Of a stretch of 64,000 nt of DNA, positions 1 through 12,663 are shown piece by piece. The stretch comes from an uncultured delta proteobacterium (GTDB lineage: Bacteria > Desulfobacterota > Binatia > UBA9968): contig CAVSHR010000003.1 of the NCBI GenBank assembly GCA_963727625.1, positions 160,001 to 224,000 on the forward strand, in the 5' to 3' direction. A program made the position numbers and the translations under genes. Each line of letters opens with the position of its first letter. The first letter of the stretch is position 1. Under the pieces are notes generated by a model that worked only from the letters and a program-made list of their open reading frames with translations, did not search any database and was not told the origin of the DNA.

Positions 1-1059
1 GCGCTTTTGATCGCTCGGTGAAATGCGATTGCCGAAAATTGAAGAAGCGAAGCCGCACTGCGGGCTCAGTCCTAGCCGGTCTTTTGAAATGTACCGGGTG
101 GCTTCGGTGATGCGTTCCGTCAACACTTCGATCGATTCCAAATCCGGTTTTTTCGTCGTTACCAGTCCTAAGACGACAAATTTTTCGCTCGGCACATCCC
201 GCAACGGCTCGAATGACCCGGAGCGAGCATCGTCGTATTCCAACAGCAGCCGCTGGGCTTGAATGCCGCGGAACAAGTTGCGGCTGATCGCTTCATAACC
301 CCCTTGTGACAGCCACCGGCTGCCCTGGTTGCCGCGTCAAATGTGAAACCCGAAGGTGACATCATTAAAGCCCTTGATTACGGCGTTGTCGAGTTCGATG
401 CCGAGGGAAAGCCATTTTTCCAAACTCCAGCCGAGTCCTTCATAGAAGGCGCGGGTGCTAGGATCGACCAGCAACCCGTAATGCGGCGCATCGATCTGAA
501 TGTATGCTGCGCCGAGGCGATTCAATTCCGCGACCTCATCGCGCAAGATTTTTACAATATCGGCGAGAAAGCCGTCGAGCGTCGGATAGGCAGCGGAAGA
601 ATATTTCGGCGACCAAAAATTGGCCCATAAACTGGGACTCGGAAGCGTCACTTTCGGAATTTTCCCGGTTTTGCTCTTGAGGTAAGAAAATTCAGACGCC
701 GAGAGAAAACGAAGGCGATTCAGTTTGGCGACGGCGCCGAGGCGGCGCGGCCGTCGAGTCTTGTGCACGCCCCCGTCGTCGCGCCAATCGCCCCACAGAA
801 AAGCGTCGAGATTGAATCGGCCGAAGCCGCTCACCGCGGCGGTCATTTGAGTTTGAAACGACTGGCGGCGCATCTCGCCGTCGGTGACGATTTCCAGGCC
901 GATACTTTCTTGCAAAGCGATGGCCTCGTCGACGGCGCGGTCTTCTATGACTTTGAACTGAGCAGCCGTTATGACTTCGGCAGCAAGTTGCTTTTGAGCC
1001 TCCAGCAGTTCGGCCGGGCGAAGTAAGCTGCCGACAACGTCGGTATGAGTGGTAATCAC
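1..1059 (-). CDS. Cobalamin-independent methionine synthase II (MetE C-terminal-like) family protein, probable selenoprotein (UGA at 337-339); runs off the window start
   Basis: N-term DVVGSLLRP, TDGEMRR, IQIDAP. The ORF track stops at GFHI-TGA, but the same frame continues open to base 1 as RGNQGSRW...LLLEYDDARSGSFEPL...VVLGLVTTK...LSPQCGFASS. TGA replaces the Cys of the HxCRGN Zn motif. Confidence 0.9.
308..324 (-). promoter_or_regulatory. Candidate bacterial SECIS hairpin
   Basis: Minus strand GGCAGCC-GGT-GGCTGTC: 7-bp stem with a G-starting apical loop 19 nt after the in-frame UGA. Confidence 0.65.
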
Positions 1060-1182
1060 AGCACTTTCCCAGCCGTAAAAACCGTCGCGGTGATTCGCCC
1101 TGAATTCACGCGGACCAGAAAATTGTTACAGAAGGTTTTGCTCTTCGAAATTCGCTAGAGGCCGATTGCTATTTCGCTCGGC

Positions 1183-5183: not shown

Positions 5184-5885
5184 CTATCTGAGGGCACGTA
5201 GTGCTTGGATACGTTCTGAAGTCGCGGGGTGAGTTGAAAGGATGCCGCCACCGGTGTCGCCGTTGCGGCGCACGAGCCAGGTCAAGGTGTCGATCATAGT
5301 CTTTTTTGAATAGCCGGCTCGTTGCAAAAGAGTGACTGCGTGTCGGTCGGCTTCAAGCTCGAGCGGACGGGTGTAACTGTTGCTGATCAATGTGCCGGCA
5401 ATCGGGGTTACCGAACTGCTGCCGGGAATAAGTTCTTCCAACAACGCAACTCCCATGCTAACGCCGGTGCCGATGATCTGTGCCTTGGCAGGATGACCGA
5501 GATCCTCATGAGCGATCTCATGGGCGAGCACGCCGCGCAGTTGCTCATCGTTGGCGCGATGCAACAGGCCGGAGGTGACGTAGTAATGGCCGTTACCCGC
5601 GCTCGCGGCATTAATCGCCGGATCATCGACGATGGACAAGCGGACCTCCTCACGCGCTAGGCGCTGATCTGTGACGCGCAGTAGCGGCAGCATGACCGAG
5701 CGCAGCCGGGCCGTCTGTTGTTCCGCGCGGGCCGAAGAGTAGTCGCGCCGATCTTCCCGCTCATTGCGAAATGCGCCGGCTTGGGACGCGGCGCTGAGAA
5801 AAAACACGGCGGTTAAAAAGACCAGCCACCGGGTCGGTTGGTTCATCGTCATAGCCTCTGACTTGGCGCTTGTAAGGGTGGACAT
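5184..5885 (-). CDS. M48 family zinc metallopeptidase (exported)
   Basis: INAASAG, VLAHEIAH, ELEAD, STHPATSERI motifs; signal peptide. Confidence 0.9.
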   Translation of the reverse strand: MSTLTSAKSEAMTMNQPTRWLVFLTAVFFLSAASQAGAFRNEREDRRDYSSARAEQQTARLRSVMLPLLRVTDQRLAREEVRLSIVDDPAINAASAGNGHYYVTSGLLHRANDEQLRGVLAHEIAHEDLGHPAKAQIIGTGVSMGVALLEELIPGSSSVTPIAGTLISNSYTRPLELEADRHAVTLLQRAGYSKKTMIDTLTWLVRRNGDTGGGILSTHPATSERIQALRALR

Positions 5886-10577: not shown

Positions 10578-11360
10578 ATGCGAACTCCGGCGTCACGCCA
10601 ATTGTCACCTCCAACACTTAGGCTCGCGATCGTCGCATGTCTAAGCACCGCGACCGCGACGTTTGGCGCCAGTTACGACGAATTGAGGTCGGAGGCGGTT
10701 CAGCGCTGCCAAGCGATCGATCCCGGCGCCTATCAGACTGGCCTGTTTTTCAATTCCGACGGCTATCGTTCCTACTATGTTCGATCGGAGTGTTTTCAAA
10801 GAATTGCAGTGGAGTTTCGCGACGAGACGCTTTGTGCCGAAGTCAAGCAGCGATATTCGCTGTTTTCGTCCAGCTGGGGTTATTCGCTCGCGCAATGCCA
10901 CAAGCTGGTCCACGGAGGCATTGCTGTGGATGAAAATACTTTGACGGAGATCAAGCAGCGCTATCGCCAGGGAGCGGTGCGACTGCGCGATTTTCGCCTC
11001 GAACGAAACGGCAACGGCCGCGACTTCGACATCATTCCATCGTTCACCGGCGCATTCGGTCATGGCTACAATCTGCGCTTTGAGCTTTTTCCAACCGCAG
11101 CCGCTAACCCCCCCGTGCTCTTACATACCTCTGGTTATTATGTAGACGGCAACAGCAACCTGCGCATTTTTGTCAGACAAGAGGAGATCCGCCAACCCTT
11201 TCCCGACCTTGTCCTGGGGCGGCCCTATACGGTGCGCGCGACTTTGACGCTTAATATTGGCAACGGCGGTCAAGCCGGGAAGTGGAGCGATGCATTCATC
11301 GAACGTATCTTCCCGGCGCGAGAGCGCAGCCAATCTTTGGACAGAGAAGTTAAGTTCTGA
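10578..11360 (+). CDS. Secreted hypothetical protein
   Basis: Signal-like LRLAIVACLSTATATFG, Cys-containing helical N-domain, beta-rich C-domain. Confidence 0.7.
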   Translation: MRTPASRQLSPPTLRLAIVACLSTATATFGASYDELRSEAVQRCQAIDPGAYQTGLFFNSDGYRSYYVRSECFQRIAVEFRDETLCAEVKQRYSLFSSSWGYSLAQCHKLVHGGIAVDENTLTEIKQRYRQGAVRLRDFRLERNGNGRDFDIIPSFTGAFGHGYNLRFELFPTAAANPPVLLHTSGYYVDGNSNLRIFVRQEEIRQPFPDLVLGRPYTVRATLTLNIGNGGQAGKWSDAFIERIFPARERSQSLDREVKF

Positions 11361-11448
11361 CTGCGAGGGGAAAACCCGTCGGCGAAAAATAGCAGGCCGA
11401 TCGCTGATATAGAAACCGTGATTCACTATTCTCAACAGGTTCTGACCT

Positions 11449-12663
11449 ATGCCATTTCCATTGAGTCGTGACGGCTGGCTGCTTTTCATCACCTGCGGGG
11501 TCCGTTCGTTTGCTTATGGTTTTCTCTCGGTCATTCTAGGGCTGTACCTCGATTCCGCCGGACTTAGCCCCGGCACAATCGGCTGGATATTTACCGCGGC
11601 GCTCGCGGGCGGTGCCGTCATGACGATCCTCGTCACCAGTGTAGCCGACCGCTTCGGGCGCGGAATATTTTTGATCATTGGTGCAATCCTAATGGCTTTG
11701 GCGGGCTGCGTGTTTGCCGTCAGTCACGATCCTATTTTTCTCGCGATCGCTGCGATCTTTGGCACTATAAGCCCTTCCGGCAAAGAAGTCGGTCCATTTC
11801 TTTCCATCGAACAGGCGATTTTGCCGCAGACGACTCCCGCTCAGCACCGTACAGCTATTTTCTCCGCGTATAATCTCGTCGGCTCGTTCGCCGGGGCAAT
11901 CGGCGCGCTAGCGGTCGGGTTACCCACGCTTTTCGCGCTGTCGGCGGCGGCGGGTTATCGACTGCTCATTTGGAGTTATGTCGCGGCGGCACTGATTCTC
12001 GCGATGTTATTCACTTTGCTCTCGAAAGACGTGGAAACTCGGCAGCCGGTCGGCTCTCAACGCCTGCGAATCGGCGTGCACAAGTCGCGCGGCATCGTCG
12101 CTAAATTGGCCGGCCTGTTTGCGCTGGATGCTTTCGCCGGTGGGTTCATCGTACAAAGCATCATCGCTTACTGGTTTTATCTTCGTTTCAAGACAGACTT
12201 GAACGTTTTAGGCGGCATCTTTTTCGGCACGAATATCCTCGCTGCCTTGTCGTTTCTCGCAGCTCCCGCGATCGCGCGCCGGATTGGCTTGCTGAATACG
12301 ATGGTGTTCACTCACCTGCCGTCGAATTTTCTGATTCTTCTGGTGCCGCTGATGCCGAACCTCAAGCTCGCTGTGGTCATGCTGCTGCTGCGCAATTCTC
12401 TGTCGCAGCTCGACGTGCCGACGCGCCAATCGTATACGATGGCAGTGGTTGATGCCGATGAACGGGCGGCGTCAGCGGGCATCCTATCGGTTGCCCGTAA
12501 CGCCGGCGCCGCGCTGGCGCCGTTGTTTACCGGGGCAATCCTCGCTCGGCCAACTTGGGGCCTGCCTTTCTTACTCGCGGGAGGGTTGAAGGTTGTTTAT
12601 GACCTATGGATCTTCGTAGTGTTTCGGCGTGTGAAGCCGCCGGAAGAGAACGAACCACGTTGA
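11449..12663 (+). CDS. MFS transporter
   Basis: About 12 TM helices, ADRFGR motif A, GTISPSGKEVGPF, DVPTRQSY. Confidence 0.93.
   Translation: MPFPLSRDGWLLFITCGVRSFAYGFLSVILGLYLDSAGLSPGTIGWIFTAALAGGAVMTILVTSVADRFGRGIFLIIGAILMALAGCVFAVSHDPIFLAIAAIFGTISPSGKEVGPFLSIEQAILPQTTPAQHRTAIFSAYNLVGSFAGAIGALAVGLPTLFALSAAAGYRLLIWSYVAAALILAMLFTLLSKDVETRQPVGSQRLRIGVHKSRGIVAKLAGLFALDAFAGGFIVQSIIAYWFYLRFKTDLNVLGGIFFGTNILAALSFLAAPAIARRIGLLNTMVFTHLPSNFLILLVPLMPNLKLAVVMLLLRNSLSQLDVPTRQSYTMAVVDADERAASAGILSVARNAGAALAPLFTGAILARPTWGLPFLLAGGLKVVYDLWIFVVFRRVKPPEENEPR

Follow-up and report, generated by a model that had tools for sequence, protein, structure and literature searches.

Does the TGA codon that closes a predicted open reading frame (ORF) in the genome of an uncultured Binatia bacterium terminate a short protein, or is it read as selenocysteine (Sec) in the active site of a longer one? 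The codon lies in the window analysed here, a stretch of 64,000 nucleotides (nt) corresponding to positions 160,001-224,000 of contig CAVSHR010000003.1 (assembly GCA_963727625.1; coded below as contig C3 of genome G000). A first-pass annotation of the letters had proposed that ORF calling splits a MetE-like gene at this TGA within an HxCRGN motif, that the codon takes the place of a zinc-ligand cysteine while the other ligands are kept, that 112 further codons stay open and retain the LEYD and SPQCGF motifs, and that a 7-base-pair (bp) stem with a G-starting loop follows 19 nt downstream. The checks that it named included Cys/TGA interchange among homologues, conservation of the hairpin in them, and the presence of selA, selB, selC and selD in the genome. 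Our analysis of the sequences indicates that the locus is very probably a functional selenoprotein gene, whose product would be a single-domain ('core') member of the MetE catalytic-domain superfamily, of the YxjG/YxjH/1YPX type. This grading applies to the statement as a whole; Sec decoding taken alone deserves more confidence than this, the zinc-ligand chemistry and the substrate less.

ORF calling returned two separate pieces on the reverse strand: an ORF of 240 amino acids at window 337..1059 (-), which terminates after ...GFHI, and an open-ended fragment of 92 amino acids at window 1..276 (-). Translation of the TGA as U joined them in a single unbroken frame of 353 residues up to the window edge, with U241 placed within H-I-U-R-G-N and 112 codons, including those for LEYD and SPQCGF, located 3' of the TGA inside the window. 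The split gene and the open codons were therefore as previously described, with the refinement that the true end lies outside the window. Past the window start the frame extends 14 codons to a TGA stop, giving a protein of 367 amino acids (L131:11956-13059; G000:C3:159956-161059; Table 1).

Relatives were sought by a six-frame search of 60 whole genomes. Orthologues with exactly one in-frame TGA and 62-80% identity were found in 23 further genomes among these 60; one further orthologue had no stop, and another was truncated before the site. The TGA falls at the same column in 24 of the 25 loci that cover the site, the exception being a TGC in genome G009. Two of the counted relatives, G005 and G035, are unpublished genomes, and excluding both gives a TGA count of 22/23. 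None of the relatives' matches listed at 46% identity or below has a TGA, and all nine paralogues checked (35-45% identity) carry a Cys codon, TGC or TGT. We also assembled a wider set with one genome per species (GTDB), consisting of the best 80 of 321 relatives, which overlaps the 60-genome set and is not additional to it. The interchange that the first-pass annotation had named as a check was found at exactly the same column, with TGA in 52 of the 80 loci and TGC or TGT in 28. The TGA forms come from records labelled Binatia, Poribacteria (6), Acidobacteriota, Latescibacterota, Methylomirabilales, Tectomicrobia, Desulfobacterales and Caldilineaceae.

Past the TGA, no additional stop occurs until a shared end near codon 368. 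Over the 82 pairs, out of 231, that were usable, the median ratio of nonsynonymous to synonymous substitution rates (dN/dS) was 0.105 before the TGA (codons 1-240) and 0.129 after it (codons 242-367). Mean amino acid identity was 0.717 before and 0.675 after the TGA. Purifying selection is the same on the two sides of the codon, which argues that the downstream frame is translated.

The candidate SECIS (selenocysteine insertion sequence) hairpin has a 7-bp stem, GGCAGCC/GGCUGUC, a distance of 19 nt from the UGA to the loop, and a minimum free energy (MFE) of -10.9 kcal/mol. The stem, the G-starting loop (GGU) and the spacing agree with those first noticed in the letters. The bacterial SECIS model allows a loop of 3-9 nt, a stem of 4-16 bp, a G in the first two loop positions, a UGA-to-loop distance of 16-37 nt and an MFE of at most -7.5 kcal/mol (PMC13188914). 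The hairpin lies within every one of these limits, its loop being 3 nt long with G at the first position. Among the 52 Sec forms, 91.8% of cells in the stem are paired, compared with no more than 82.7% for slid partners. At the codon level, the loop Arg is encoded by CGG in 22/22 full-length relatives, whereas each of the 10 remaining invariant Arg columns draws on 3-6 codons, and the four- and six-fold sites of codons 242-252 have an entropy of 0.94 (n=5) versus 1.56 elsewhere (n=68; p 0.013). This synonymous-site pattern is the strongest RNA-level signal for a SECIS element.

The source genome is 98.45% complete in 15 contigs. Genes for selA (607.5 bits), selB (397.5 bits) and selD (377 bits), all above curated cut-offs, are consecutive on contig C5 (G000:C5:715112-719466; L001, L009, L010), and tRNA-SeC with the anticodon tca lies ~50 kb from them (C5:768830-768924), so that the whole of the selA, selB, selC and selD set is present. 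Among the relatives, selA was found in 23/24 genomes with the TGA form, the sole miss being a 65%-complete genome, and it was also found in 5/5 TGA-form genomes from other phyla. In the Cys-form relative G009 (93% complete), selA was not found and selB gave no match above its cut-off.

The selD gene carries an in-frame TGA of its own, as in a Sec-containing SelD. Its hairpin, CGUGCAA-GUC-UUGCACG, lies ~27 nt after that TGA and has a stem of 7-8 bp with the loop GUC; it is comparable to the hairpin described above and farther from the UGA.

With the TGA read through, the protein matches the Pfam family PF01717 (Meth_synt_2) with E 4.8e-18 and 66 bits against a cut-off of 21. It failed the model for MetE proper (TIGR01371), scoring 35.7 bits as a protein and 29.7 bits as a locus against a cut-off of 929.95, and a search of the protein against NCBIfam matched no selenoprotein-specific model. 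The best sequence match in the PDB (E 4.6e-37) is 1YPX, which has 375 residues and is titled 'putative vitamin-B12 independent methionine synthase family protein'. The MesD structure 3RPD is a weak sequence match (E 1.7e-6), and the full-length MetE structures are likewise weak by sequence. An AlphaFold2 model built from 39 sequences had a mean predicted local distance difference test (pLDDT) score of 90.2. When this predicted structure was submitted to Foldseek, Thermotoga maritima MetE (1T7L) was returned with E 1.9e-20 and TMq 0.76, and 1YPX with TMt 0.87.

Residues were mapped by a MAFFT alignment of 15 sequences, with Sec written as C, against the C-terminal half of E. coli K-12 MetE. The MetE residues that bind zinc and homocysteine were taken from the list in Price et al. 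2021 (PMC7857596). The zinc ligands H641/C643/E665/C726 of E. coli MetE map onto H239/U241/E274/C335, and the homocysteine-binding residues S433/E484/D599 map onto S11/E62/D190. All seven columns are identical in 15/15 aligned sequences, again with Sec counted as C. The alignment thus sustains the original placement of the TGA at the zinc-ligand cysteine of a MetE-like site with the other ligands kept. Because the N-terminal folate-binding domain is missing, we describe the protein as a 'core' MetE-type enzyme and not as MetE itself.

Several observations weigh against the selenoprotein reading or parts of it. Folded as a single sequence, the hairpin region is no better than its shuffles (z 0.26, with 121/200 shuffles equally good), and the case for a SECIS therefore rests on comparative evidence. 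There, the hairpin covariation score in the 52 Sec forms was reached by 0/500 shuffles, yet it derives from one pair, in which C-G changes to A-U (2) or G-U (2). The outer pair 17-31 is broken in 20/47 distinct rows, and consequently the conserved core of the hairpin amounts to ~5 bp plus the loop. Since the hairpin overlaps the conserved peptide GSRWL, its conservation is also partly protein-level. The two forms differ in the loop Arg codon (CGG 46 and CGT 6 in the 52 Sec forms; CGC 19, CGG 5 and CGT 4 in the 28 Cys forms) and in the number attaining an MFE of -7.5 kcal/mol (49/52 Sec forms versus 14/28 Cys forms), contrasts that are raw counts without correction for phylogeny. A scan of window 1-1100 against Rfam at E <= 10 gave just three hits, all of chance level and all away from the hairpin. 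Public reads from three runs containing small shares of the stretch yielded contigs over window 1-311, 379-411 and 833-1059, leaving bins 325-360 empty and the TGA uncovered; an identical 202-nt contig from an RNA library, at window 842-1043, is uninformative on the codon and on expression.

Beyond the hairpin, selA is also present in 5/5 Cys-form genomes tested from other phyla, and Sec is therefore not obligatory for the enzyme. Loss of the machinery accounts for the Cys state in G009 only and not for the Cys forms of other phyla, since those retain selA. The nearest NCBIfam models both score below their cut-offs, PRK06520 (subfamily) with 224.8 bits against 313 and PRK06233 (equivalog) with 212.8 against 576; the protein is a relative of the YxjG/YxjH type, yet not a member of it by NCBI thresholds. 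We infer the zinc-ligand role, the substrate and the methyl donor purely from alignment, and the gene neighbourhood of the 80 loci contains nothing conserved across phyla and gives no clue to function. Set against these points, the hairpin proved to be conserved among homologues, with a codon choice specific to the Sec forms, and the genome carries the full Sec machinery, so that these remaining checks named at the outset also support Sec decoding.

A mechanism consistent with these data can be outlined. SelB carrying Sec-tRNA(Sec) would bind the hairpin, with its GGU loop 19 nt after the UGA, and insert Sec241. In the mature enzyme a catalytic zinc would be held by His239, Sec241, Cys335 and Glu274. 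This zinc would bind homocysteine, or a closely similar alpha-amino-acid thiol, as its thiolate, with recognition through Ser11, Glu62 and Asp190, and the activated zinc-bound thiolate would then attack a methyl (alkyl) donor. The absence of the N-terminal folate-binding domain suggests a donor other than methyl-folate held in the MetE manner. The selenolate would either, as a softer zinc ligand, boost the nucleophilicity of the zinc-bound substrate or shield the metal site from oxidative inactivation. The idea of selenium protecting an oxidation-prone site draws on PMC4360819, in which S-thiolation hits the zinc-site cysteine of Bacillus subtilis MetE, and also YxjG. Selenium may have been selected to tune alkylation of the zinc-bound thiolate toward poor methyl donors, or to preserve the easily oxidized metal site of a MetE-type enzyme in bacteria with an aerobic life, such as Binatia and Poribacteria. 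We give an even chance to the joint reading in which Sec241 directly ligates the catalytic zinc, which would make this a non-redox selenoenzyme and, as far as we have found, the first natural catalytic zinc-selenolate site, and in which Sec may be ancestral in this widespread orthologous clade, with the GSRWL peptide of the Cys descendants as a relic of the SECIS hairpin.

Other explanations of the same codon must be considered. The UGA might simply terminate translation, leaving a nonsense-mutated pseudogene or a truncated protein of 240 amino acids whose remainder is untranslated or made separately. Standard ORF calling does end at this TGA, and TGA is also the gene's real stop codon. Termination would nevertheless leave unexplained why the same TGA recurs in 52/80 species-level genomes of several phyla, why same-frame purifying selection persists after it (dN/dS 0.129), and why Glu274, Cys335 and half of the barrel are encoded 3' of it; the downstream piece also has no conserved start of its own, and the alignment spans the site uninterrupted. 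We consider termination exceedingly improbable. Readthrough without selenium, in which Cys, Trp or Gly is inserted by a near-cognate or suppressor tRNA or under a different genetic code, draws some support from the 28/80 orthologues in which Cys functions at this position. The ordinary stops of this genome include TGA, however, this gene's among them, and the genome has a dedicated Sec system. The TGA form also occurs together with selA in 23/24 relatives and in 5/5 genomes from other phyla, whereas G009, without selA and without selB above cut-off, has TGC, and the Sec forms display SECIS-specific codon choices. Selenium-free readthrough is thus very improbable.

A further alternative accepts Sec insertion and assigns the residue another task, namely that the selenolate is not a passive zinc ligand but the reacting nucleophile, which takes up the methyl group as an Se-methyl intermediate and hands it on, or that the enzyme is switched by a redox-active selenenylsulfide between Sec and Cys335. 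By alignment, Sec sits in the active site beside Cys335 and His239. Elsewhere, Sec is found at the methyl-acceptor or methyltransferase site of methylated-DNA-protein-cysteine methyltransferase and arsenite methyltransferase (Table 1 of PMC13188914), and S-thiolation of the zinc-site cysteine in B. subtilis MetE was noted above. Against this, the four zinc-ligand positions and the three homocysteine-binding residues are exactly as in MetE and fit the standard zinc-thiolate mechanism, and because Cys-form orthologues are common (28/80), the chemistry must also work with sulfur. We therefore judge a reacting or redox-switching selenolate unlikely.

The history of the two forms was examined in a FastTree phylogeny of 81 orthologues with four paralogues as the outgroup. 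The tree requires at least 8 Sec/Cys changes, 5 of which are forced by well-supported branches. The Binatia clade contains 38 Sec forms and 1 Cys form, and Sec forms sit nearest the root with weak support. The orthologous clade has the signature RGNQGSRWL in place of the RGNQRSMWH of the Cys paralogues, and the Cys-form orthologues retain the hairpin-encoded GSRWL. These data are compatible with Sec being ancestral in the orthologous clade, and it may have been so, although the tree cannot separate gain from loss. If Sec is ancestral, GSRWL in the Cys descendants may be a fossil of the SECIS hairpin.

Five orthologues on contigs titled Verrucomicrobiia, Chloroflexota, Udaeobacter or Syntrophobacter in GenBank (L051, L057, L062, L078 and L086) nest in the Binatia clade with 74-80% identity, which suggests submitter naming, errors of binning or a recent transfer. 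In one relative whose genome is 60% complete, a Cys paralogue (G010:C215:966-2045) contains one in-frame TAG, which may be an assembly error or mark a pseudogene.

The YxjG/YxjH/1YPX type shares with the protein a single catalytic domain of ~370 amino acids and the HxCRGN, LEYD and SPQCGF motifs, and the Cys-form orthologues bear the NCBI name 'cobalamin-independent methionine synthase II family protein', as that type does. The present protein differs in the predicted replacement of the first zinc cysteine by Sec, in its own RGNQGSRWL signature and in scoring under the PRK06233 and PRK06520 cut-offs. In lactobacilli, yxjH is under methionine-specific T-box control (PMC6004538). E. coli MetE has the same zinc ligands, homocysteine-binding residues and barrel fold, but is 753 amino acids long against 367 and has the N-terminal folate-binding domain, with Cys643 at the position of Sec. 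The core folate-independent methionine synthases MesA-MesD likewise consist of the catalytic domain only with the zinc and homocysteine residues conserved, and their methyl donors differ from that of MetE, being for example corrinoid proteins or MesX (PMC7857596). The similarity to MesD is distant, however (3RPD, as above), and the accessible text of the same paper describes no Sec form of MesA-MesD.

Among known selenoproteins, formate dehydrogenase (Mo/W) and [NiFeSe] hydrogenase resemble the present case in that Sec replaces a Cys of a catalytic metal and the SECIS directly follows the UGA (PMC13188914). They catalyse redox reactions at Mo/W or Ni, whereas here the metal would be a redox-inert zinc and the reaction group transfer. 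Arsenite methyltransferase and methylated-DNA-protein-cysteine methyltransferase have Sec in a methyl-transfer active site (PMC13188914, Table 1), but their folds are unrelated and their Sec has no zinc-ligand role.

What the enzyme may do for the cell is suggested by the rest of the genome. A full MetH is encoded (1662.9 bits, cut-off 1010.85), and a TIGR01371 search of the genome did not find a full-length MetE. There are also six full-length Cys paralogues (C4:1307517-1308593, C4:1306241-1307296, C6:63204-64274, C2:626044-627084, C9:41899-42960 and C4:17348-18253). Given MetH and these six paralogues, the protein is better seen as an accessory methyl-harvesting transferase than as a housekeeping methionine synthase, and we infer from sequence an accessory zinc-dependent methyl (alkyl) transferase of the homocysteine type with a non-folate donor. 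The first-pass annotation had favoured a role other than methionine synthesis, and had taken two amidohydrolase neighbours as a hint of catabolic thiol-alkyl transfer. The former stands insofar as the enzyme does not appear to be a housekeeping methionine synthase, which is compatible with the full MetH. The catabolic hint is not supported: the adjacent amidohydrolase had any match in only 10/80 orthologous loci, of which 4 reached 60% identity, and its distance from the gene varied; the homocysteine residues, moreover, are kept in 15/15 sequences. Function from gene neighbourhood was rejected altogether, no partner being conserved across phyla.

The core MetE-like family is expanded in Binatia, with up to 23 matches per genome among the relatives. 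In the source genome, G000:C9:460950-461267 (L020) duplicates residues 1-106 of this gene at 75% identity, with no continuation in any frame, and is probably a gene remnant.

Table 1. Positions in the window of the candidate selenoprotein gene, its key codons and hairpin, and the upstream genes.
Feature	Window position	Strand	Basis or remark
MetE-like selenoprotein coding sequence (predicted), 367 amino acids	1..1059 + 44 nt past the window's first base	(-)	GTG start 1059-1057; last 14 codons and TGA stop outside the window
In-frame UGA, predicted Sec241, at the E. coli MetE Cys643 position	337..339	(-)	Alignment; TGA/Cys column comparison
Candidate SECIS hairpin	308..324	(-)	5' arm 324-318, loop GGU 317-315, 3' arm 314-308; 12-nt spacer 336-325 after the UGA
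His239 codon, corresponding to E. coli MetE zinc ligand His641	343..345	(-)	Alignment; invariant in the 39-sequence alignment A2
Glu274 codon (LEYD), corresponding to E. coli MetE zinc ligand Glu665	238..240	(-)	Alignment; invariant in A2
Cys335 codon (SPQCGF), corresponding to E. coli MetE zinc ligand Cys726	55..57	(-)	Alignment; invariant in A2
Amidohydro_2 gene (PF04909), upstream	2379-1183	(-)	Pfam; local context only
Amidohydro_2 gene (PF04909), upstream	3594-2590	(-)	Pfam; local context only

To the left of the window, genes for a UbiD-family decarboxylase (L131:9422-11020, (+)) and a TauE/SafE-family membrane protein (11198-11947, (+)) converge on the selenoprotein gene. A TauE gene is near it in 19-24 loci and a UbiD gene in ~10, all of them in the Binatia clade; as a pair the two remain beside it in some 10-20 loci of that clade and nowhere else. 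Within the window, a Peptidase_M48 family gene at 5184-5885 (-) (E 7.1e-26) is unrelated to the selenoprotein.

We next to these results place the published record of selenoproteins. MetE, PF01717 and COG0620 have no entry among the 119 prokaryotic selenoprotein families in Table 1 of a May 2026 review (PMC13188914). A MetE-family selenoprotein is not mentioned in the accessible text of the deep-Sep paper (PMC12013277) and has zero matches in that of the Haft and Gwadz preprint (bioRxiv 10.1101/2022.07.06.499078), and 'methionine synthase' has zero occurrences in the Sargasso Sea, GOS, Olavius and ISME 2016 selenoproteome papers. Searches of the open full-text literature, including the accessible portions of PMC10418091 and bioRxiv 10.1101/2021.03.15.435355, returned no description of a Sec-containing MetE-family protein; supplementary tables and subscription journals lie outside this scope, and for that reason absence from the catalogues is probable and not certain. 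The full-length proteins of the clade in the databases are Cys forms, named 'cobalamin-independent methionine synthase II family protein' or '5-methyltetrahydropteroyltriglutamate--homocysteine methyltransferase', and none is named a selenoprotein. We conclude that this is a Sec variant of a known enzyme family and probably a selenoprotein family not yet catalogued.

To our knowledge, nearly all known selenoproteins are redox enzymes. If the proposed role is correct, Sec ligating a redox-inert zinc in a methyl- or alkyl-transfer enzyme would extend the range of tasks that selenium is known to serve. The natural Sec/Cys pair, in which both forms are common, would offer a handle on the effect of selenium on zinc-thiolate alkylation and on the oxidative inactivation of MetE-type sites. 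Standard gene callers would be splitting or truncating this gene in at least 52 species-representative genomes from Binatia, Poribacteria, Acidobacteriota, Latescibacterota, Methylomirabilota and others, and a Sec-flagged family model would fix many annotations. Poorly known soil and sponge bacteria would thereby gain a selenium requirement.

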